NCBI GenBank assembly: GCA_964479005.1
Contig: CAYZJA010000001.1
Coordinates: 192,001-256,000, forward strand
Direction: 5' to 3'
Source of the DNA: an uncultured Candidatus Saccharibacteria bacterium
GTDB lineage: Bacteria > Patescibacteriota > Minisyncoccia > UBA6257
Length of the DNA stretch: 64,000 nucleotides
A program made the translations under genes and the position numbers. Below are positions 5,332 through 32,710 of this stretch, piece by piece (position 1 is the stretch's first letter; each line of letters opens with the position of its first letter). Below the pieces are notes generated by a model. It made no database searches. It was not told where the DNA came from and saw nothing but the letters and a program-made list of their open reading frames with translations.

Positions 5332-5859
5332 ATGGATAAAAAGAAAACAGTTAAAAAAACAACATCTGTAAAGAAAGAGACAAAGAAAACGGTGAAGAAA
5401 GAAGCGAAGAGAAAAGTAAAAAAAGAAGTCAAAAAAGCTGTAACAAAAAAGGAAGTCAAGAAGGAAATCAAGAAAAAGTATATTGAAGCTGTTGGTAGAA
5501 GAAAAGAATCTGTAGCTCGTGTAAGGCTTATCAAAGACAAGCCAGGTTTTATTATTAATGAAAAAACAATGGAAGAATATTTTTCTTTGCGGGATTATCA
5601 CAAAAAGATATTAGATCCTTTCAAAACAACTAATTTAGAAAATAGTTTTTTTGTTTCAATAAAAGTAAAAGGAGGTGGAATTACCGGTCAAGCTGAAGCT
5701 ATTAGATTAGGAATTAGCCGTTGTTTAATAAAAATTGATAAGAAATTAAAACCAGCATTAAGAAAAGCGGGATTTTTGACACGTGATGCTCGTATTGTAG
5801 AAAGAAAGAAATATGGTTTGAAAAAGGCTAGAAAGGCTGCACAGTGGTCAAAAAGATAA
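5332..5859 (+). CDS. rpsI: 30S ribosomal protein S9 with a lysine-rich N-terminal extension
   Basis: C-terminal 130 aa matches S9 (GRRKESVARVRL...GGGITGQAEAIRLGISRCL...RDARIVERKKYGLKKARKAAQWSKR); N-terminal 45 aa are VKKE-type repeats. Confidence 0.9.
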   Translation: MDKKKTVKKTTSVKKETKKTVKKEAKRKVKKEVKKAVTKKEVKKEIKKKYIEAVGRRKESVARVRLIKDKPGFIINEKTMEEYFSLRDYHKKILDPFKTTNLENSFFVSIKVKGGGITGQAEAIRLGISRCLIKIDKKLKPALRKAGFLTRDARIVERKKYGLKKARKAAQWSKR

Positions 5860-5895
5860 ATTAACTCTTTACCTTTCTTATTAATTCTTATTAAA

Positions 5896-5925
5896 AAGCA
5901 TCTCTCAATAAGGTGCTTTGTTTCT
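5896..5925 (+). terminator. intrinsic terminator of the ribosomal operon
   Basis: AAGCATC-tctcaataa-GGTGCTT stem (one G-U pair) followed by a TGTTTCTT run. Confidence 0.55.
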
Positions 5926-5953
5926 TGACAAGATGAGATATATTTGTTATATT
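5925..5953 (+). promoter_or_regulatory. sigma70-like promoter (TTGACA-17-TATATT) at the left edge of the inserted island
   Basis: TTGACA at 5925-5930, 17-nt spacer, TATATT at 5948-5953. Confidence 0.55.
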
Positions 5954-6088
5954 AAATACAATAGAACAGTTACTGATATAACCATCGGAAGGTAATAAAA
6001 TTAAATAAATCTTATTTAAAGAAAAACGGGTTTCTACAATTCAAGAAAGTGAGTTAAATGTGAATAATTCTCCTAATCGGGTATAATT

Positions 6089-6316
6089 ATGAATAACAAA
6101 CCCATCATAACTAAGGAGAAAGCACAAAAACTTTCTAAGCTTTTCGATAATCCTACTAATTTTAAACAGGCTTGTATTAAGGTTTTATTAGAAGTACCTG
6201 ATGAAAAACTGGATTTTTACAAAGGGAACTTGACTTTTTCAAAAAATGGTGGTACAATTTTGACGAAAATAGAACAATTTTGCGAACAGAAACAATTTAA
6301 GAGTTTTAAGAATTAA
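6089..6316 (+). CDS. small hypothetical protein, paralogue 1 (75 aa)
   Basis: MNNKPIITKEKAQKLSKLFDNPTNFKQACIKVLLEVPDEKLDFYKGNLTFSKNGG...; about 70% identical to the next ORF; no SD; ATG abuts a TATAAT box. Confidence 0.5.
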   Translation: MNNKPIITKEKAQKLSKLFDNPTNFKQACIKVLLEVPDEKLDFYKGNLTFSKNGGTILTKIEQFCEQKQFKSFKN

Positions 6317-6317
6317 A

Positions 6318-6428
6318 CAATTGAATCATACAATTTAATTAGTTTGCCGAGAAGGTGACGCTAACCGAAGAGGGGCGTCTAGACTATCTCTAAGTTTATT
6401 AGGGGTCGTCTGGACACCCCTTTTTTCA
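6318..6428 (+). repeat. about 110-nt GC-rich structured 3' element, copy 1 of 2 (nested hairpins GGGGCGTC...GACACCCC plus T-run)
   Basis: Near-identical copy at 6662-6772; ends in CCCCTTTTTT (terminator-like). Confidence 0.6.
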
Positions 6429-6653
6429 ATGAATAACAAATTTATTATAAACAAAAGAAAATATCAGGAACTTTCTAAACTCTTTGATAATCCTACTAAT
6501 TTTAAGGAAGCTTGTATAAAACTTCTGTTAGAAATACCAGATAAAAAATTAGATTTTTACAAAGGGAACTTGACTTTTTCAAAAAACGGTGGCATGATTC
6601 TAATGAAAATAGAAGAATTATGTGGGTCAAAACACTTTAATTTTAAAGATTGA
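6429..6653 (+). CDS. small hypothetical protein, paralogue 2 (74 aa)
   Basis: MNNKFIINKRKYQELSKLFDNPTNFKEACIKLLLEIPDKKLDFYKGNLTFSKNGG...; ATG lies 2 nt after the T-run of the preceding hairpin. Confidence 0.5.
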   Translation: MNNKFIINKRKYQELSKLFDNPTNFKEACIKLLLEIPDKKLDFYKGNLTFSKNGGMILMKIEELCGSKHFNFKD

Positions 6654-6661
6654 ACCTACAT

Positions 6662-6772
6662 AGATTAAATCATACAATTTAATTAGTTTGCCGAGAAGGT
6701 GACGCTAACCGAAGAGGGGCGTCTGAACTATCTCTAAGTTTATTAGGGGTCGTCTGGACGCCCCTTTTTTTA
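6662..6772 (+). repeat. about 110-nt structured 3' element, copy 2 (stem GGGGCGTC/GACGCCCC plus T7)
   Basis: Direct repeat of 6318-6428 with a perfect outer stem in this copy. Confidence 0.6.
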
Positions 6773-6938
6773 TTGGAAATTATTGGGAAAAAATATCAAC
6801 TGGATATTGAGAAAAAAATAGTACTTTATAGCACCTTGAAAAATAGCACCTTGAAATAAAAATTTAGTGAAATGAGAGATAAGAAAAAGATAAAAGTATA
6901 AGAAAGAAATGTATTAGAAAGAAAGGAGGTGAAACAAA

Positions 6939-8138
6939 ATGACAAAACGCAAATGGACTAAAGAAGATGACGAATATCTTATCCAACATAGTCCGAAACA
7001 ACGGGGAGATTATGGGAAGTTGGCTATCAAACTTGATAGAACAGTAGAAGCAGTGAGGTATAGGTGTAGAAATCTAAAATTGGAAAATGTCCAAAAGAAT
7101 AGTCAGGCACAGAGAACAGATGTTCCATTAGAAGATAGGATTTACGAATTGCTTTCACATTCCAAAAAACATTCTATTGAGGAGCTAAGTAATACATTTG
7201 ATATTTGTGTAGGAAAGGTTAAAGAAGCATTAGGTGTATTACAGAGCAGACGGATTTTAATAGACGCAATAGATGACAAAATTGTTTTAGGGAATACGAT
7301 TAAACCACCAAAAGCCACTCCAATTCCGATGAAGATTTATCATAATAGGTGGATTAAGTTTGGAGTAATCAGTGATACTCATTTGAACTCCAAATATCAA
7401 AGATTGGATATTTTAAACCACGCTTATAAAATCTTTCAGAAAGAAGGAGTGAAGAATGTTCTACACGCTGGGAATATTATAGATGGTTATGGTAGATTAA
7501 ATCAGTTTGATGTATTTAACATCGGGACAGAAGACCAAATCAACTATTGTATTGAAACCTATCCTTGTAAGCAAGGGATTACTACTCACTTCATTACTGC
7601 TGATGATCACGAGGGATGGATTGTAAGGAGAGAACACATTAACATCGGAGAATTACTTGAACTCAAAGCTAACAAAATGGGTAGAAAAGATTTGAAACAT
7701 TTAGGATATATTGAAAGTGATGTGTTAGTTAAAGTTGGAAGCAAACCTACAAGAATTAGAGTATTCCATCCTGGCGGAGGCACAGCATATTCTCTTTCTT
7801 ATAAACCTCAGAAGATTGTTGAGTCCTTACAGGGTGGAGAAAAACCTGATATATTATTAGTCGGACATTTTCATAAACTCGGACATTTTGAATGGCGGAA
7901 TGTGGAAGTGTTATTGACTGGTTGTATAGAAGACCAAACTCCATTTATGAGAAAGAAACATATTGCTGCTCATCTTGGTTTCTATATTGTGAAAGCCCAT
8001 ATTGCTCCTGACGGTTCTGTCAATAGATTCATTCCAGAAAAGATTAGCTATTACGATAGGAAATATTATACCAGCAGAGCTTGGAAGAAAACTCCTACCA
8101 GTTTTGAAAAACCTATTGAATGGTTTTACAAGTGGTAA
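6939..8138 (+). CDS. Myb/SANT-like HTH + winged-helix + calcineurin-like metallophosphoesterase fusion protein
   Basis: N-terminus W-x2-EDDEYL...G-x-W-x2-IA-x2-L-x-RT-x5-R (Myb-like); phosphoesterase motifs GVISDTHLN, HAGNIIDG, LLVGHFHK; strong SD AAGGAGGTG. Confidence 0.55.
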   Translation: MTKRKWTKEDDEYLIQHSPKQRGDYGKLAIKLDRTVEAVRYRCRNLKLENVQKNSQAQRTDVPLEDRIYELLSHSKKHSIEELSNTFDICVGKVKEALGVLQSRRILIDAIDDKIVLGNTIKPPKATPIPMKIYHNRWIKFGVISDTHLNSKYQRLDILNHAYKIFQKEGVKNVLHAGNIIDGYGRLNQFDVFNIGTEDQINYCIETYPCKQGITTHFITADDHEGWIVRREHINIGELLELKANKMGRKDLKHLGYIESDVLVKVGSKPTRIRVFHPGGGTAYSLSYKPQKIVESLQGGEKPDILLVGHFHKLGHFEWRNVEVLLTGCIEDQTPFMRKKHIAAHLGFYIVKAHIAPDGSVNRFIPEKISYYDRKYYTSRAWKKTPTSFEKPIEWFYKW

Positions 8139-8208
8139 GTATTCGCTCTTAAAACAAAACGGGGTGTCTTAAACACAGACACCCCTAATCTCACAGGAGG
8201 TGATTTTG

Positions 8209-8781
8209 ATGAAAATCTTAATCGATTTGGACGGAACAGTATTTGAGACTTACGACACTTTAGAAGAAAAGTTTGTCCAGAAATTTAATCGCAAAATGAA
8301 CTGGCAGGCGCTGAAAAGCGGCAAGAATCATTACTGGCAAACAGATGGGGGTAAGTGGATAGTCAAGCAATTCAAAGACCCAAACTTTTATTACAATTTA
8401 GAAACTTATCCTGATGCTCCCAAAGTGTTAAGGCAACTTGCCCGAAAACATACAATCATATATTGTACCGCGAGGAGGTTTGGATTAGAAAATGCCACCT
8501 CCTATTCGCTTGGTTATAGAAAACTGCCATTCGGGAAGGTATATTGTATTGGCAGGAGACACATTGCGGGGGTTAAAAAGAGAATTGCCTTAGATGAAAA
8601 AATTGACCTTGCTATTGATGATGAATCAAAAGTGGTAGAAAAACTTTCTGAAGTCTGTCAAGTTTTGATATTTACTCAGAATTATAATAAAGGTTGTAAA
8701 TTCGGTAAGAGAGTAAAATCTTGGAAGGAGGTGCGTCATGAATTACAAGCAAAGAAAAGAAATAATAGAACAAGCAAATAA
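8209..8781 (+). CDS. HAD-superfamily 5'(3')-deoxyribonucleotidase-like protein (NT5C family)
   Basis: MKILIDLDGTV (HAD motif I DxDGT) after SD AGGAGG; phage-type nucleotidase architecture. Confidence 0.55.
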   Translation: MKILIDLDGTVFETYDTLEEKFVQKFNRKMNWQALKSGKNHYWQTDGGKWIVKQFKDPNFYYNLETYPDAPKVLRQLARKHTIIYCTARRFGLENATSYSLGYRKLPFGKVYCIGRRHIAGVKKRIALDEKIDLAIDDESKVVEKLSEVCQVLIFTQNYNKGCKFGKRVKSWKEVRHELQAKKRNNRTSK

Positions 8782-9073
8782 AAGACGTCAATCCTTAATG
8801 CTTAATAAAGGAAAAGAATATTCAAAGGGTAATGCCGATATTAATTATAACTTTAAAGAAGTTGCTGATAGATTAGGCACTCGTCTTGCTGGAACTCCTG
8901 AATATACTTGTTTAGTTTATTTATTCAAACAGATTTTATCAATAGAGAAATGGGCAAGAGATGGAAAGTTAAGTTCAGGGGAAACAATTTTTTCAAGATT
9001 AGATGATGCCAGAAACTACATGGATATTTTAGAAAGTCTGATAAGAGAAAAATCCGATGTACAAGGAAGGTGA
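8738..9073 (+). CDS. hypothetical protein (111 aa)
   Basis: ORF with an SD-like GGAGGTG upstream; overlaps the end of the preceding gene. Confidence 0.35.
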   Translation: MNYKQRKEIIEQANKRRQSLMLNKGKEYSKGNADINYNFKEVADRLGTRLAGTPEYTCLVYLFKQILSIEKWARDGKLSSGETIFSRLDDARNYMDILESLIREKSDVQGR

Positions 9074-9220
9074 TGGTATGGAAATTCAGAATGTTTACTG
9101 TTTGATTAAGATTACTTGTGTTGTGATTATTGTAGTAGGATTTTTCGCAATTGTTCAATTACATCTTAAAAGAGAAAAGCAAAGGATACGGGATTATTAT
9201 AAAAGAGGAGGTGATAAGCG

Positions 9221-10303
9221 ATGAAAAAACTACTCGTAGTATTGATTTGTTTGTTTCTATTAGTTCCAACTGTAATTTCTGCACCAGTTGAAAGATTAAG
9301 TGTAGGAGATTTTACTCGTGCAGTAACGGCTCAGATAGTCTGTAATGTTGATGTGTATAGACGGGATTTAACCTGGTATAAGATTGAGGATGGTCAGGTG
9401 ATCCCTGAATTCAAAGATTTAGATGAAGATGACTGGGCATATCAATGGTTAAAGAAAGGCTGGTTCGTGGTATATGGCGAATGGAATACAGAACCTCGCA
9501 AAGGTAAGATAATGGGTTCTGGTGAAGTATTATATTCCTGGTTATTACCTATGGGGATTAACTTAGAAGGTAAACCTGCTGCAACTTATGTAGGCACAAA
9601 TGCCCATGTGGTAGATGTATTTATGTTAGAAGCCAGTAGGGGTTCAAGAGATAAACCATTAGACCTATATGCCGAGAAGGACACGATGAAGACAATGAAT
9701 ATGCTTAGAACGACTTATAAAGAAGAGGCTAAACCAATAGCCCAGTATTACTTTGATATAGATAACAGTTATATCACTGTAAAGACCGAAGCAGACCAAA
9801 GATTTAGAACTAAAGTTAACATCGTATTGTTTGACATAGCATTAGATTTTGCCTTATTGGAAATGGAAAATGTTTTAGGTCTGCCTTATGTGAGTTTTAG
9901 AGGCACTCCTATACAGGTTGGCGAAACGATTAAAATCTGTGGAGCACCATTAGGATTTGCTTTTAGTAGAGACGAAGGACGAGTAAGTCAAGTTCACTTA
10001 AATCTCGGAACTGATGGAGTGGAAGATTATATTGTATGGGATAACCAAGTGCGTATGGATATTGCTGCTGCACCAGGAAGTTCGGGTAGTGCGATATTTG
10101 ATAAAGATGGCTATATGATTGCCCAATTACACGGAATAATGGTTCACAACGGCAACTATATTCAAGGCGGACAATTAGCAGTAGACCAAGAAGATATAAT
10201 TCGTTTTCTGGTGTTAAATGGTTTTTCGTGGATAGTTCAAAATCCTTATGGAATTTGGGCTAACGCACCATATAATACAGTCCGACCAAAAGTAGGAGAA
10301 TAG
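9221..10303 (+). CDS. secreted trypsin-like (S1/HtrA-type) serine peptidase
   Basis: Signal peptide MKKLLVVLICLFLLVPTVISAP; catalytic-triad-like motifs GTNAHVVD (His), DFALLE (Asp), APGSSGSAIF (Ser). Confidence 0.55.
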   Translation: MKKLLVVLICLFLLVPTVISAPVERLSVGDFTRAVTAQIVCNVDVYRRDLTWYKIEDGQVIPEFKDLDEDDWAYQWLKKGWFVVYGEWNTEPRKGKIMGSGEVLYSWLLPMGINLEGKPAATYVGTNAHVVDVFMLEASRGSRDKPLDLYAEKDTMKTMNMLRTTYKEEAKPIAQYYFDIDNSYITVKTEADQRFRTKVNIVLFDIALDFALLEMENVLGLPYVSFRGTPIQVGETIKICGAPLGFAFSRDEGRVSQVHLNLGTDGVEDYIVWDNQVRMDIAAAPGSSGSAIFDKDGYMIAQLHGIMVHNGNYIQGGQLAVDQEDIIRFLVLNGFSWIVQNPYGIWANAPYNTVRPKVGE

Positions 10304-10536
10304 AAATGAGAATTAACGCAGAGGGGGCTTACCTTGATGGTTTCTAAAAGTCCCCCTCCAGCTGTATGGAGGTGATTAAGATGAGGTGGTTATTACTCAC
10401 ATTTGCAATATCTACTATCATATCTTTTGTAGGATTTGTGAATTGTAAAATGGAAAAGGAGAAAGATTGGTTTATTGCGTTATTGGTTTCTGCAACATTA
10501 GTTGTATTGATGTTTGTTGAATTATCTTAGGGGGAG

Positions 10537-10893
10537 GTGATAGAGATGAAGAAACGAAGAAAAAAGCAAAAAGTTAAGAGAGAAGTTTTAAAGAAAATTG
10601 TTAGAGAGAAAAAGGTTTGTTATTTCTGTGGAACTACCGAGAATATAACCGAGCATCACATAATTTTTAAGTGTTTCATTAAAGGCGGAGAGTTACCAAA
10701 TAACAAGAAAGACATTTGTGATAAGTGCCACAAGCAGTTTCATAAATTAGCAAAACCTGTTGTGGATTTACTCTTATCGGTAATTCAAGGATTACAACCG
10801 AAACCAACTCGGAAAATAGGATTCATAAGAACGAACAACAAAGGAGGCGAAAGAAATGAGAAACATAAAAAGATGTCTATTGTTCTATCCTGA
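10537..10893 (+). CDS. HNH-type zinc-finger nuclease-like protein
   Basis: CYFCG...EHHIIF...CDKCHKQFH (C-x2-C...HH...C-x2-C-H). Confidence 0.5.
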   Translation: MIEMKKRRKKQKVKREVLKKIVREKKVCYFCGTTENITEHHIIFKCFIKGGELPNNKKDICDKCHKQFHKLAKPVVDLLLSVIQGLQPKPTRKIGFIRTNNKGGERNEKHKKMSIVLS

Positions 10894-11080
10894 CATACTG
10901 CCAGCTTTACCTTGTTCTTATCCCGATGAGGATAAATGCGGTAGATATATGAAAATCTATCGTAGAAGTAAGAACAGAAAACAGGCAATAGTTCTTTGCT
11001 CACATCGGGTTAAAGAATTAGGTAGAAAGACTTGTGTCAGAGAACAAATGAAACTCAAAGATTCTACAATTTACAGGTAG
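10856..11080 (+). CDS. Cys-rich mini-protein (74 aa), paralogue of 11436-11630
   Basis: Shared motif PC-x-YPD-x2-KCGR and a later C-x-H/C pair. Confidence 0.35.
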   Translation: MRNIKRCLLFYPDILPALPCSYPDEDKCGRYMKIYRRSKNRKQAIVLCSHRVKELGRKTCVREQMKLKDSTIYR

Positions 11081-11113
11081 AATTCTCAAAGCCATTAGAA
11101 GGAGGGAGAAGAA

Positions 11114-11275
11114 ATGAAAACAAGAATAGTAGTAATTGTAGAAAATGAAATATCTTATTCAGTAAATGATTTTACCAGAATGGAACTCAAAGTTTTCAAG
11201 AAAAGGATTAAGGAACAGATAGAAGAGAAATTGTTAGCAGGTTGGAAAGTGATAAAAATAAAAATTAGGAGGTAA
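11114..11275 (+). CDS. small hypothetical protein (53 aa)
   Basis: ATG 8 nt after GGAGGGAG; MKTRIVVIVENEISYSV... Confidence 0.3.
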   Translation: MKTRIVVIVENEISYSVNDFTRMELKVFKKRIKEQIEEKLLAGWKVIKIKIRR

Positions 11276-11435
11276 GAAGTAATGAGAATAACAAGAGAAG
11301 AGCTCGTAAAACAAGGATGGTCATTTATGAGAAGAATAAGCAGAAATTGCGAAATCTGGACAAGAGAAGAAGGAATGATCCTATGGAATAGAGAAACATT
11401 AAAGGTTTATGTGATATGTTAGGAGGTAAAAAGAA

Positions 11436-11630
11436 ATGAGAGATATTTATCGTTGTCCGATTATGTGGAAACTTTTAAAGAAAGCAACTCCTTGTGCGTA
11501 TCCTGATGTTGAAAAATGTGGAAGAGTTGGTGGCTCTTTCCTTTGTAAATATCGGATAGCTGAAATAGGTAAAAAGAATTGCCTTAAAGAAGTTGCTGAG
11601 TTGAAAGATTTTGCTAAAACTCTCAAATAA
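11436..11630 (+). CDS. Cys-rich mini-protein (64 aa)
   Basis: MRDIYRCPIMWKLLKKATPCAYPDVEKCGRVGGSFLCKYRIAEIGKKNCLKE; SD AGGAGGTAA. Confidence 0.35.
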   Translation: MRDIYRCPIMWKLLKKATPCAYPDVEKCGRVGGSFLCKYRIAEIGKKNCLKEVAELKDFAKTLK

Positions 11631-11794
11631 AAGCCAATGGCAAGAGGGCTATATCTCTTGCCACTCTCTCGGAGGGTATTTGTAGATGTTGTTCAAAATC
11701 ACATAAGTCCCATTTTTCTACAAGTATCTTCCGAGAGGGTAATTTCCTCAAACTAATAAAGGTCTTTAAAAAATAATCATAAATAAATATAAAT

Positions 11795-11995
11795 ATGAAA
11801 TTTTGGAAACCTCTCACAAAATACAGATATAGCAAAGAGAGAAATGAAGTTAAATATCATACTGATTTTATGCTTGATAAAGAAGAAGGATTTGAATTAA
11901 GATTTGCGGACTTTATGTTTAAGGAAAAAGTTCCAAAAGATAAGGTTTGGAAATGTCATCTTGAGCTTGCTGTGGAGGAATTTAATGAAAAATAA
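11795..11995 (+). CDS. hypothetical protein (66 aa)
   Basis: ORF only. Confidence 0.25.
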   Translation: MKFWKPLTKYRYSKERNEVKYHTDFMLDKEEGFELRFADFMFKEKVPKDKVWKCHLELAVEEFNEK

Positions 11996-12103
11996 AACAA
12001 CCAAAAAACATTGTGCGTTACATTATAAATCTAAATAAACTTAGTTATATTATTTTAATAGATTAAAACAATTTTTAAATTTTACGAATTAGAATATGTT
12101 CCA

Positions 12104-12556
12104 ATGTTCCAAATATCCGAAGAAAAATTAAAAAAGATAAGAACGGTAGAAATTGCCATCAATAAGAATTTATTTTTAATTTGTATTGTTATTTCAGTAA
12201 TAACAATGAGTATTTTAGGAATAGAATTTTTTAGCCATAGAATCTTTCCTTCTTCTAAAATAAGTTTTTTTTACATTGGGATTTTGTTGATTTATTCTAT
12301 TCATAAGGAAATGTTGAGATGGGTAGGAGCAAAAAGAATAGAAAGGCAAGGTGAGTGGTTTGTTTATTTTTGGATCGGATTTACTATCATCTTATATGTT
12401 ATTAATTTCTCTACAAAAGGTTATTTTAATTATCCTTTAGGAAATACATCATCGGAATCGCTTAATCAAATTGCCGTTACTACTTTAGAAATCTGCGGCA
12501 TTTTTATTGTTTCTAGATTATCTAAGATGGCAAAGATTATTTTGGAAAAAAGATAA
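12104..12556 (+). CDS. hypothetical integral membrane protein (4 predicted TM)
   Basis: Hydrophobic segments throughout. Confidence 0.4.
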   Translation: MFQISEEKLKKIRTVEIAINKNLFLICIVISVITMSILGIEFFSHRIFPSSKISFFYIGILLIYSIHKEMLRWVGAKRIERQGEWFVYFWIGFTIILYVINFSTKGYFNYPLGNTSSESLNQIAVTTLEICGIFIVSRLSKMAKIILEKR

Positions 12557-12624
12557 TAATAATATTCTAAGATAGAACATTTTTTGTATTTTGAAAATTA
12601 AAAAGAGAGGAGGTGGACAATTTG

Positions 12625-13258
12625 ATGAAATTATTAAGAGTTTTTTTTGTCAGCTTTTGGGAAAGGAATTATAACTTTGGTTCCAATCTTAATTATTTTC
12701 TGGTTACTTGGACTTTTTTTGGGAGAAAATATGATAACTATGCGAGATATCATATTTTCTATTTTAAGGGGATTACTTCCTAGGGGGATGGTAGTGCAAG
12801 AGTGGATGATTGGTTTAGGATTGATTTTAACTATTCTGTTTGTCGGTTTAATTTCTTCATCAATTTTCAAAAGAATCTACGCCTGTACAGGTAGATTAAT
12901 AGGTAAATTAATCCAAAAATCATTAACAGGGAAAATAAAAGAACAATATCAGGATCAGGGTATGGTGATATTTGAGTTTAGGGAAGGAATATGGATTCCA
13001 GGAATTATAGTTGGATATATAGCAGGAAGTGAAAAACTTAAGGGTGGAAAATTTTTGAGAATCTTTATTCCCAATGTACCCATACCTTTAACTGGATTTT
13101 CACCTATTTTTGTGCAAGAAAGCAAAGTGATACATATCGATCTTCCGGTTGATGAGGTACTTAATATGTATATTTCAGCTGGGATATTAGGCCCTAAAAG
13201 ACTCCCAGAAATAGTCAGGGAATTAGAGAAAAGAGAAATAATATCAAAAATAGACTAG
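12625..13258 (+). CDS. DUF502-family membrane protein, interrupted by a +1/-1 frame change in a T8 homopolymer (12641-12648)
   Basis: SD AGGAGGTGG is 9 nt upstream of ATG 12625 (frame 0), which reads MKLLRVFF... The long DUF502 body (P-x-P-x-TG motif FIPNVPIPLTGFSPIFV) is in frame +1 from 12647. One extra T would fuse them into MKLLRVFFLSAFGKG..., a typical DUF502 N-terminus. Confidence 0.55.
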
Positions 13259-13276
13259 TAGAGACTTTTAAAGGCG

Positions 13277-13322
13277 GTCTCAATATTTATCTGAGAACCG
13301 CCCTTTTTTTTGGTATAAGAAA
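13277..13322 (+). terminator. intrinsic terminator after the DUF502 gene
   Basis: GGCGGTCTC...GAGAACCGCC stem followed by T8. Confidence 0.6.
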
Positions 13323-13432
13323 ACTCTAATCTATACCAGGGATGGATTGACTAACAAGATTATTAGTGGTATAATTGGATTACTCTACTTAGTACTCTTG
13401 AAAATTTTAAAAAAAGGAGGAAAAAGAAAAAG

Positions 13433-13675
13433 ATGAAAAGGATATTATTTGAAAAGAACGCTAAAAGAATTACAAAGGCAGTAGCAGAATTTGTTGCAGA
13501 AGAATTTAAGCCTTTGAGGGAAGGGGATAAGATAAAAAAGATAGGAGAGCTGTTAAAGGGTTTTGAAGACACAAAAAAAATAAATGGAAATTTTTTTGTT
13601 GTTCTTCGATTACCTGAAGGGACAGAAGCAGCAATTGACTTACAAGGAAGACTTTATGACTTAAATGAAATTTGA
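13433..13675 (+). CDS. hypothetical protein (80 aa)
   Basis: SD AAGGAGG upstream. Confidence 0.35.
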   Translation: MKRILFEKNAKRITKAVAEFVAEEFKPLREGDKIKKIGELLKGFEDTKKINGNFFVVLRLPEGTEAAIDLQGRLYDLNEI

Positions 13676-13703
13676 TTTTAGGCAATAGGAGGCGAAAAAC
13701 ATA

Positions 13704-13787
13704 ATGACAGTAACTACATTTTCAGAATTCTTGCCCTGGTTTGTAATAATGATCGGAGTGTATTTTTTATCTCTTTGGATAAAATAA
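13704..13787 (+). CDS. small hydrophobic peptide (27 aa, MTVTTFSEFLPWFVIMIGVYFLSLWIK)
   Basis: Unlisted ORF with a perfect SD AGGAGG 7 nt upstream; single TM. Confidence 0.35.
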   Translation: MTVTTFSEFLPWFVIMIGVYFLSLWIK

Positions 13788-30232: not shown

Positions 30233-30790
30233 ATGGGACATCGTATATTTATTGCTTCACATTTACCAAATGATGTTAAGAAAATCTTTTTAGATTATCA
30301 ACAAAAGAAACTCCACAATTTTGGTTTTCGGCTTATACCTGAGCAGGCCTTACATTTAACATTGGTCTTTATTGGATATGTTAGTAATGATAATATATTG
30401 AAAATTAATAAAGCTTGTCAAAATATTGCTTCCTTGTTCTTTCCAATAGAGGTTAAATTAAATAAAATAACTTATGGTCCAAATCCACACTCCCCTCGCC
30501 TAATTTGGGCAGAAGGCGAAATTTCAAAGAATTTAGACAAACTTCATAAAGCATTAGAAAATGAATTAATGGACCAGGGAATAAATTTTAAAATAGAAAA
30601 TCGTTTATTCAAACCCCATGTTACTTTAGCGCGCTTCCAAAATGAAACAAAACCACCACGTCTATCAGAACTGGAAGAAAAAATTAATAAATCTTTTGTA
30701 ATTAATTCCATATCTATTATAGAGAGCGAATTAAGTCGTTCAGGACCACAATATACGGATTTAGCCACATATACATTAAATTTTAAATAA
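30233..30790 (+). CDS. thpR: RNA 2',3'-cyclic phosphodiesterase / 2'-5' RNA ligase (2H phosphoesterase, LigT/ThpR)
   Basis: Two H-x-T-x motifs: HLTLVFIG and HVTLARF. Confidence 0.75.
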   Translation: MGHRIFIASHLPNDVKKIFLDYQQKKLHNFGFRLIPEQALHLTLVFIGYVSNDNILKINKACQNIASLFFPIEVKLNKITYGPNPHSPRLIWAEGEISKNLDKLHKALENELMDQGINFKIENRLFKPHVTLARFQNETKPPRLSELEEKINKSFVINSISIIESELSRSGPQYTDLATYTLNFK

Positions 30791-31626
30791 TGTTTATTAT
30801 TAACGTAATTCCATTGACTAATATTCCAAGGCCTCAACCACAAATTTTTTCTTATTTTTATAAGTCGGATTTAATAAAAGGATCTATTGTTGAAATACCT
30901 TTAAGACGCAGGAATGTAATGGCAATAGTGTTGAATTCAGCGTCTGTGTCTTCAAAAAAAGCAACCTTAAAAAAGGCTGATTTTGTTTTAAAACCAATAA
31001 ATAAAGTTATCTCTTCAAGGCAGATAGTTCCACCATTATTTTTTTCTTTAGCAGATTTTATCTCTCGTTATTATTTTTATCCAATTTCGTTGTGTTTGAA
31101 AATTATTTTACCACGTCGCATGAAATCTTTAATAAATTATGTAGAAAAACTAGAAAAAGATTTTCCAAAATATTTTGATCCATCAGTTTCAAAGACAAAA
31201 AAAGATAAAATAGAAAAAATAGGTTCCTACAATTTTTCTGATGTTATTAAAAAAATAAAGGCAAATCTTAAAAACAAAAAACAGGTGTTAATTCTCGTTC
31301 CAACTATTTTCTATCAAAATTATTATTTTACTAAATTATCATCTAAAATCTCTATACCAATTTTTATTTCCTCAAATGATTTAAAAATTAAAGAATTTAA
31401 TTCTTTATGGACAAAAATTAATTCTCAGGAAGCGCAATTAATTATAGGACGGCGTTCTTCTCTGTTTCTGCCATGGCAAAATTTAGGACTTATAATTGTA
31501 GTGGATGGAAGCAATAATTCTTATAAATCGTGGAATCAAAAACCTTATTATAACGCCGCTTTTCTTATTAACTATTTAGCTTTGTATTATAATACTTCAA
31601 TTATTTACTATAATGCCTGTTATTAA
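30790..31626 (+). CDS. priA: primosomal protein N' (PriA) N-terminal part: 3'BD/WH plus a degenerate helicase lobe 1
   Basis: Aligns to E. coli PriA up to motif II, but Walker A GSGKT is replaced by GSYNF and DEEH by VDGS; QVLILVP and LIIGRRSSLFLP are conserved. Confidence 0.6.
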   Translation: MFIINVIPLTNIPRPQPQIFSYFYKSDLIKGSIVEIPLRRRNVMAIVLNSASVSSKKATLKKADFVLKPINKVISSRQIVPPLFFSLADFISRYYFYPISLCLKIILPRRMKSLINYVEKLEKDFPKYFDPSVSKTKKDKIEKIGSYNFSDVIKKIKANLKNKKQVLILVPTIFYQNYYFTKLSSKISIPIFISSNDLKIKEFNSLWTKINSQEAQLIIGRRSSLFLPWQNLGLIIVVDGSNNSYKSWNQKPYYNAAFLINYLALYYNTSIIYYNACY

Positions 31627-32710
31627 AATTATTGATCTAAAAAAGGTTAGAAAAGAGAAAAAACTATTTCAGGCTATTTCTCCTGATGCTTTTATTGAAA
31701 TTCAAAAAGCCCTAAAAAAAAGAAAAAGGATTATTATTTTTATTAACAGAAGGGGGTTAGCAACAAGCATTATATGCCAGGAATGTGGTTTTGTATTTAA
31801 ATGCCCAAATTGTGATATCCCCTTGGGGTTTCATAATAAATCTAAGCTTATTTGTCATCATTGTAATTATAATGTTTCTATACCACCAGTTTGTCCTTCT
31901 TGCAGGGGCTATAAGCTTAAAGCTTTGGGAATTGGTATTGAGAGAATTGCTGAAGAAATTAAAAAATTTATTATTCCAACGCCTATTTTTATGTTAATCG
32001 AAGGGGAAACTTCTGATGAACAAAAATCAGATATTTTCGATAAATTTAATCGAGGAGATATTAAAATATTAATAGGGACTGAAGCTCTTTTAAACCCTCA
32101 ATTAAAAGCTGCCCATTTAGTAATAGTGGCTTCTGTTGATCCTGCGCTTTTCTTACCAGATTATTATAGCGAGGAAAGAGTGTTTTTAAACCTTTTAAAA
32201 CTAAAAGCTTTGTCTAAAGAAAGATTAATAATACAGACATTAATTCCTGAGAATAAATTATTCCAATATCTTATAAAAAACGAAGGAAAAAAATTTCTAC
32301 AAGAAGAAAAAAGATGGCGAAAAGATTATCTTTGGCCTCCCTATGTTCAATTAATAAAATTGACACTTTCTGACAAAGATCAAAAAAAGGGGGTGAAAGA
32401 AGCTGAAGAAACAAAAAGAAATTTAGAGCAAGCCATAAATAAGTTAATTCCAGAAAACCATCAAAAAGATTTTATTATTTTAGGACCTGCGCAAGCCTTT
32501 GTTTTTAAAGAAAAAAGCTTTTATAAATGGAATATTTTGGTAAAATATAAGTACTTTGAAAGTAAAATTAAAGAAGAGATTAACTCTTTGTTAGGACTCA
32601 ATTTACTTTCACCTGTTTTAACTAAAAAAGAATTAATGCTCAGAAATAAAATTTTAAAATACGTTCCTTTAAACTGGAAAATTGATGTTGATCCAATAAA
32701 TATATTGTAA
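31613..32710 (+). CDS. priA: PriA C-terminal part: Cys-rich zinc-binding region, helicase lobe 2 and CTD; separate frame with a 14-nt overlap
   Basis: IIIFINRRGLAT, CQECGFVFKCPNCD...CHHCNY...CPSC (CRR zinc fingers), ILIGTEALL; motif VI is degenerate (KLKALSKERL). Confidence 0.65.
   Translation: MPVIKIIDLKKVRKEKKLFQAISPDAFIEIQKALKKRKRIIIFINRRGLATSIICQECGFVFKCPNCDIPLGFHNKSKLICHHCNYNVSIPPVCPSCRGYKLKALGIGIERIAEEIKKFIIPTPIFMLIEGETSDEQKSDIFDKFNRGDIKILIGTEALLNPQLKAAHLVIVASVDPALFLPDYYSEERVFLNLLKLKALSKERLIIQTLIPENKLFQYLIKNEGKKFLQEEKRWRKDYLWPPYVQLIKLTLSDKDQKKGVKEAEETKRNLEQAINKLIPENHQKDFIILGPAQAFVFKEKSFYKWNILVKYKYFESKIKEEINSLLGLNLLSPVLTKKELMLRNKILKYVPLNWKIDVDPINIL

Follow-up and report, generated by a model that had tools for sequence, protein, structure and literature searches.

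A reproducible T8 frame break at the start of a predicted DUF502-family membrane protein gene in sediment Patescibacteria

When the start signal of a gene and the body of its coding sequence stand in two different reading frames, is the break an error of assembly, a switch, a site of recoding or a lesion? This question is raised by one locus in the window, i.e. the whole 64-kb stretch of DNA analysed here. The original prediction described a run of eight thymines (T8) at 12641-12648, an ATG at 12625 opening frame 0, and the body of a DUF502 membrane protein in the +1 frame from 12647; direct reading bears out the run, the ATG and the frame of the body. The ATG opens MKLLRVFFVSFWERN..., a frame of 52 codons closed by TAG 12781-12783, and the body extends from TTG 12647 to 13258 (203 aa), in the +1 frame relative to the Shine-Dalgarno-led start. 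A Shine-Dalgarno sequence, AGGAGGTGG, does precede ATG 12625, with a spacer of 8 nt and not of 9 as had been claimed. Because the body frame is shut upstream by TAA 12635-12637, the TTG made up of the final two Ts of the run and the next G is the sole possible start there. The features of the locus are these:

12608-12616, + strand: Shine-Dalgarno sequence AGGAGGTGG (direct reading; kept at every orthologue locus)
12620-12621, + strand: junction of a 21-nt (7-codon) deletion relative to orthologues (DNA alignment and regular-expression read-out)
12622-12783, + strand: Shine-Dalgarno-led frame-0 ORF, a 52-53 aa out-of-frame peptide (M)MKLLRVFFVSFWERN...GITS
12641-12648, + strand: T8 homopolymer, the frame-break site (direct reading)
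12647-13258, + strand: body ORF from TTG 12647, 203 codons, predicted divergent DUF502-family membrane protein
13270-13311, + strand: terminator-like hairpin, then a further T8 run (fold -15.2 kcal/mol, z = -3.2)

The hairpin has the look of a terminator that would end the transcription unit of the DUF502-like gene. It is left uncalled by the consensus terminator scan, its loop appearing to be above the 3-8 nt limit of that scan; over the window, the promoter and terminator consensus scan gave 12 promoter-like sites versus 9.9 expected and called no terminators. Synteny is conserved on both flanks, with an ORF for a 150-aa membrane protein upstream and genes for a membrane-fusion protein and a MacB-type ABC transporter downstream; in the window lineage an 80-aa ORF comes next after the body ORF. 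The frame-0 stop, TAG 12781-12783, abuts GGGG and then ATG 12788, which is Met48 of the body frame. Termination followed by re-initiation at this ATG, yielding a product without the first membrane helix, would be a speculative further outcome. There is no need to assume an alternative genetic code: table 11 gives clean translations of the body and of every neighbouring gene, and the host lineage is Paceibacterota-like, outside the groups that reassign TGA. Its GroEL places the host in Patescibacteria / Paceibacterota, the best match, in one MAG (CAZUBI01), being 96% identical and the following ones belonging to MAGs of Paceibacterota, Parcubacteria and Minisyncoccia.

The length of the T run determines which frames are joined. 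It had been proposed that a ninth T would connect the start to the body, which is arithmetically wrong, as test translation of the T9 form gives MKLLRVFFCQLLGKEL*, i.e. a stop. The start frame is joined to the body by T7, which reads MKLLRVFLSAFGKG, and also by T10, which yields the very peptide that the original prediction had written out, MKLLRVFFLSAFGKG. At the protein level the possible products would carry distinct signatures: MKLLRVFLSAFGK marks the rescued frame, MSAFGK... a restart at the TTG, and VFFVSFWER frame 0.

The ancestral arrangement is revealed by orthologues. A search of 5.8 billion proteins yielded only three other clusters of close relatives, at 66-78% identity. In each of the seven orthologue proteins that they contain, ...MKLLRVF-LSAFGKG... 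is continuous in one frame, and T7 (GTT TTT TTG, encoding V-F-L) is present at every orthologue locus fetched (L005-L009, four separate records). The proposal that the true N-terminus lies upstream in the other frame, split from the body by the T run, is thereby upheld, and the converse expectation, orthologues that also begin at the downstream TTG, is contradicted by their start further upstream at GTG. The orthologue loci carry 21 extra bases between the shared Shine-Dalgarno sequence and the ATG. Their DNA reads GGAGGTG-GACAAA-GTG AAA AAG CTA AAT GCT GCT TTG ATG..., compared with GGAGGTG-GACAAT-TTG ATG... in the window, and the junction region is GGAGGTGGACAAAGTGAAAAAGCTAAATGCTGCTTTGATG in orthologues versus GGAGGTGGACAATTTGATG in the window, the exact place of the junction (12620-12621) being uncertain by about 1 nt in the alignment with orthologue DNA. 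Since the orthologue product begins with a GTG placed 6 nt past GGAGGTG (MKKLNAALMKLLRVFLS...), GTG was the ancestral start. Orthologues with T7 and 21 more bases imply that the window lineage underwent both a 7-codon deletion and a T7-to-T8 insertion. The 21-nt deletion took out the ancestral GTG together with the codons for KKLNAA(L) and, being in frame, left TTG 12622 at the exact old spacing behind GGAGGTG; the insertion sits 16-19 nt beyond it.

Two further observations concern these orthologues. The database call for P0003 is a 210-aa product from an internal ATG (MELLGVFL...). Its DNA (L005 5964-6003, L006 2833-2872) carries GGAGGTG and, after 6 nt, a GTG 8 codons upstream of the called ATG, so the real P0003 product is probably 218 aa long. 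Similarity of the window gene to its relatives is also uneven: residues 1-57 are 91% identical to P0004/P0008 and 54-61% to the P0002/P0003 group; for residues 58-210 the values are 85-86% to the P0002/P0003 group and only 60-62% to P0004/P0008. The DUF502-like gene is thus a mosaic, a pattern which suggests intragenic recombination between lineages.

The start signal itself deserves attention. GGAGGTG occurs in 13 copies in the window versus 1.7 expected, a 7.6-fold over-representation, and at nine of the 13 copies an ORF starts 4-7 nt beyond it. TTG 12622 lies 6 nt and ATG 12625 9 nt past GGAGGTG, the former distance being that of other Shine-Dalgarno-led genes in the window. The copy at 12609 is the only one with a stub ORF of 52-53 codons beside a long ORF in another frame. 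The number and placement of the Shine-Dalgarno copies, the frame-0 start, and the orthologues that read from that start into the body are, taken together, beyond chance. The conserved signal at 12608-12616 thus loads ribosomes into frame 0. No comparable signal is found before TTG 12647, where the preceding AAGAG and Ts are ancestral codons for L-R-V-F. Even so, the majority of genes in the window have no Shine-Dalgarno sequence, including rpoA, those for ribosomal proteins S4 and S9, ftsW, gltX and groEL, and a start at TTG 12647 therefore stays conceivable.

The surroundings of the locus are a distinct region of the window. Positions 5600-13750 (+ strand) form an island of strongly Shine-Dalgarno-led genes with eight of the 13 GGAGGTG copies, and AGGAGG is present upstream of small ORFs at 10856, 11114, 11282, 11436, 13433 and 13704. 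The GC fraction is 0.35 at 8-12 kb and about 0.30 elsewhere in the window. The orthologous region of L005 contains an HNH endonuclease gene, two NT5C genes and a dGTP_diPhyd_N gene, and this gene content hints that the island could have come from a phage or another mobile element. Two of its ORFs, 10856-11080 (74 aa) and 11436-11630 (64 aa), both on the + strand, encode Cys-rich products which by eye resemble paralogues (C..PC.YPD..KCGR....C...I.E.GKK.C); both have AGGAGG upstream and neither has a family assignment.

The label DUF502, given to the body in the original prediction, fails in direct comparison and is recovered when profiles are compared. Direct Pfam and NCBIfam scans of the body ORF returned nothing significant (Pfam: no match at E <= 0.01), and its score against Pfam PF04367, 12.6 bits (E = 0.13, residues 97-155 only), is below the gathering threshold of 23.8 bits. 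The nearest relatives in the sub-family behave similarly, with no match to PF04367 for P0009 and P0010, 25.9 bits for P0011 and 21.1 bits for P0012. A profile of seven close sequences, run against 1.84 billion representatives, retrieved 394 proteins at E <= 1e-3, and six more distant profile matches that were tested scored 101-117 bits on PF04367, i.e. they are bona fide DUF502 proteins. Alignment of the close-sequence profile with verified DUF502 proteins by hhalign gave 99.6% probability (E = 2.7e-24) over 184 columns, N-terminal helix included. By these sequence comparisons the predicted protein is a divergent Patescibacteria branch of DUF502.

In common with PF04367 it is about 200-230 aa long, has a short and basic tail at the N-terminus, F-x-x-G-h-h-x-h-h-P within its first membrane helix and another hydrophobic helix after that, and carries the motif P-x-x-P-x-P-x-x-G in its C-terminal domain; it departs from that family in its score under the Pfam threshold and in the replaced Asn of the latter motif. 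The window motif FIPNVPIPLTGF, compared with P-T-T-P-N-P-T-S-G of DUF502, keeps three Pro and the Gly and has Ile for Asn; with IPNVPIPLTGF in place of IPTTPNPTSGF, the Asn that is invariant in the verified DUF502 alignment is thus lost. At the other end, the N-terminal motif FGKGIITLVP aligns with YFxTGLLxxLP in the hhalign comparison. The tail ahead of the F-x-x-G motif has a median length of 15 residues among the 117 family representatives whose alignment reaches the motif, only two of which, both probably truncated, have tails shorter than 4 residues. The tails inspected mostly place Arg or Lys directly ahead of the motif. A product started at TTG 12647 would have 3 residues (M-S-A), none basic, before F-x-x-G and the first transmembrane segment (TM1).

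Is the T8 run real? The same T8 is found in six separate assemblies: two are of JGI metagenomes (3300028837, where the contig has 551,616 bp, and 3300005782), and four are Logan assemblies of the SRA runs SRR3085416, SRR3085435, SRR3091719 and SRR3095939. All four Logan contigs match the window at 100% across their full length, up to 8.4 kb (8,448 bases), and both JGI stretches (about 1.2 kb each) recur letter for letter in the window, T8 included. PMC9301287 lists three of these SRA runs as metagenomes of Baltic Sea sediment, with depths of 0.75-3 m beneath the sea floor. Thus T8 together with 100% identity in all six assemblies points to a single clone and excludes an assembly error, and the uniform T8 that the original prediction had looked for in reads is seen at the level of assemblies. 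T8 is the true majority state of one clonal population, repeatedly sampled in sediments. A protein scan of metagenome contigs returned solely the NCBI orthologue contig SDBT01000295.1 and no copy of the window lineage, and a scan of genome contigs with alignment, limited to two N-terminal patterns, confirmed no locus.

The context of the run was surveyed as well. In its 64 kb the window contains 10 T8 runs, 11 A8 runs and 92 runs of 7, with other T8 runs nearby at 12265-12272 and 13304-13311, and at least a dozen A8 or T8 runs lie within the coordinates of intact long ORFs. Runs of A5, A6, A7 and A8 number 300, 121, 42 and 11, a drop of about 3-4 fold per extra base, and A/T runs of 9 or more are absent from the window. 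The stop at 8, a modest deficit, would be consistent with selection against runs of at least 9 (cf. PMC1088944). A hairpin able to stimulate slippage or frameshifting was looked for near T8, and none was found: the RNA fold of 12585-12700 has z = 0.10, and 102 of 200 shuffled sequences fold at least equally well. Elsewhere in the window, PriA is seemingly split between two + strand ORFs, 30790-31626 (278 aa), with the PriA 3'-DNA-binding domain, and 31613-32710 (365 aa), with a Cys-rich region and the C-terminal domain. These overlap by 14 nt in different frames; their junction is without a homopolymer, and no helicase-core Pfam match was obtained for the pair at the thresholds used.

These data bear on the three explanations put forward originally, an indel of sequencing or assembly, a phase-variable switch and a +1 frameshift, and none of them is favoured. 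That a homopolymer artefact explains the break is extremely improbable: indel errors are commonest at homopolymers and the window comes from a metagenome assembly, but six assemblies from different samples and pipelines all have T8 and are otherwise 100% identical to the window, and its other A8 and T8 runs fall within the coordinates of intact ORFs. A phase-variable locus, alternating between T7 (ON) and T8 (OFF) by slipped-strand mispairing and caught here in the OFF state, is very unlikely. Its attraction is that a tract this early in a membrane protein (within codons 1-8) is in the classical position, that 5' A/T tracts of about 7 are documented sites of inactivation and reversion (PMC2831843), and that both states exist across lineages, T7 in orthologues and T8 in the window. 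Against this, no length variation is seen within either group, as all six assemblies of the lineage are T8 and all orthologue lineages T7. A T7 allele with this body is absent from a collection of 15 billion proteins, where cluster 1 consists of two members, both of 203 aa. Runs of T7 and T8 being commonplace in the genome, the tract is not specially long, and T7 is the plain outcome of AT-rich codons for V-F-L.

Recoding of biological relevance, in which slippage of RNA polymerase (U8 to U7) or a +1 or -2 ribosomal slip provides enough full-length protein, seems quite improbable too. The shortest tract on which the RNA polymerase of E. coli slips productively has 7 Ts, and at T8 about 10% of reporter expression was recovered through deletion of a single base (PMC6260861). 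The window tract exceeds this E. coli minimum and falls short of the 9 nt from which selection can be seen in many genomes, runs of 8 seeming productive in some bacteria (PMC1088944). The loss of one U would restore the orthologue sequence exactly, U8 would by sequence reading permit perfect re-pairing of tRNA-Phe after a +1 or -2 shift, and the lack of A/T runs of 9 or more would fit selection against slippery runs. A ribosomal slip on GUU UUU UUU G is thus sterically possible, here without a stimulator, and there is a small chance that polymerase slippage (U8 to U7) keeps the T8 allele functional. On the other side, the break is conserved nowhere beyond one clone, T7 being present at all orthologue loci and the seven proteins in frame, and no stimulatory hairpin is present upstream or downstream. 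Moreover, with at least a dozen runs of 8 inside intact long ORFs, slippage at 8 cannot be very efficient here. The lack of a T7 allele of this body, of RNA structure and of conservation of the break together indicate that the locus is neither programmed recoding nor visibly phase-variable. A different reading accepts the insertion as real and has the gene fully functional from TTG 12647, with only a short, weakly constrained N-terminal tail lost; we hold it to be doubtful. It accords with the intact 203-codon ORF and a branch dN/dS of about 0.46, with the normality of initiation without a Shine-Dalgarno sequence in most window genes, with a tail that varies among orthologues and was shortened beforehand by the 21-nt deletion, and with the 203-aa product given by the JGI, NCBI and Logan gene callers alike. 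It is opposed by the ribosomes loaded at the Shine-Dalgarno sequence, which would run over TTG 12647 and through 45 codons of the body out of frame, by the weakness of TTG as a start codon, with AAGAG and six Ts upstream being merely ancestral codons, and by the tail of 3 non-basic residues before TM1 where the family median is 15 (n = 117).

We consider it rather probable that the break is a real, fixed, non-programmed and lineage-specific T7-to-T8 insertion which has left a crippled or leaky allele. Replication slippage would have added one T to the ancestral T7 (GTT TTT TTG, V-F-L) at codons 6-8, and the insertion would have become fixed in one clonal Patescibacteria (Paceibacterota) population of sediments. 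The 21-nt loss in the same lineage would have put TTG 12622 and ATG 12625 behind an unchanged strong Shine-Dalgarno sequence. Most ribosomes would then begin in frame 0, cross T8 and stop at TAG 12781 after 52-53 codons, probably also occluding TTG 12647 on their way; as initiation in frame 0 ends at this stop, the allele would be crippled, i.e. a young pseudogene or a strong hypomorph. Full loss may be mitigated by two leaks. RNA polymerase may omit one U on the T8 template, restoring the ancestral MKLLRVFLSAFGKG, and weak internal initiation may take place at TTG 12647, giving a product nearly without an N-terminal tail; such an internal start is plausible where starts lacking a Shine-Dalgarno sequence are the norm.

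Several observations speak against such a crippled state. In a genome of 30% GC, the body has kept an intact ORF across 203 codons. All pairwise comparisons give a dN/dS of 0.25-0.35. On the window branch there are 15 nonsynonymous and 9 synonymous changes, mostly conservative; their ratio amounts to about 0.46 of that expected under neutrality (p = 0.055) and is similar to other branches. With this ratio there is no sign of decay: the insertion is very young, or selection still acts on the gene, and T8 sequences that do not differ from one another cannot tell the two apart. Constraint is weakest in the N-terminal tail, seven codons of which the lineage had already lost. In the first 15 codons of L005 and L007, all six nucleotide differences, counted by eye, alter the amino acid.

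Genes are often inactivated at short A/T tracts close to their 5' end; in inlA, such a tract leaves a product of 8 aa (PMC2831843). The 5' poly(A) of Listeria monocytogenes inlA (Orsi et al. 2010, PMC2831843) is alike in being an A/T homopolymer in the early codons of a gene for a cell-envelope protein, where a one-base indel results in a very short out-of-frame peptide and the change is strain-specific and reversible in principle. Unlike the window lineage, which shows one state and belongs to an uncultured Patescibacteria bacterium, inlA varies in length between strains and its high switching frequency was measured. In reduced, AT-rich genomes, a frameshift in a homopolymer either is an initial step in the erosion of the gene or is put right by slippage (PMC3017870). 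The slippage-rescued genes of Blochmannia and Buchnera (PMC3017870 and work cited there) share with our case a small AT-rich genome, a single poly-A/T indel in an otherwise intact gene, no faster evolution and the same ambiguity between a recent erosion step and slippage correction. Their tracts are usually 9-12 nt long, whereas that of the window has 8 nt, and some of them are conserved between populations or species, whereas the window frameshift belongs to one clone. The programmed slippage genes (Shigella mxiE T9, Thermus dnaX A9, IS elements; Baranov et al. 2005, PMC1088944) likewise have two overlapping frames that meet at an A/T run and a product set by the tract length in mRNA. In contrast to the window site, which is absent from every orthologue, theirs are conserved and usually at least 9 nt long, and the window would need one U lost (or two gained) where the usual case is one gained. 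The break is an ordinary strain-level mutation and no new kind of system.

For annotation, the consequence is that the 203-aa product from TTG given in databases should be flagged as frameshifted, the ancestral start lying upstream and now out of frame; the reference form is that of the T7 orthologues, 217-218 aa from GTG. The locus shows, cleanly and reproducibly, a homopolymer indel that has become fixed in a clonal population of subsurface Patescibacteria. Should slippage rescue be true, the phenomenon known from endosymbionts as 'impaired and rescued by polymerase infidelity' would extend to the candidate phyla radiation, with a tract of only 8 nt, and a gene frameshifted yet expressed would exist in free-living or episymbiotic Patescibacteria of deep, slow-growing sediment populations. 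Transcripts carrying U7 would then be a gauge of the tolerance of such tiny genomes to slippery tracts.
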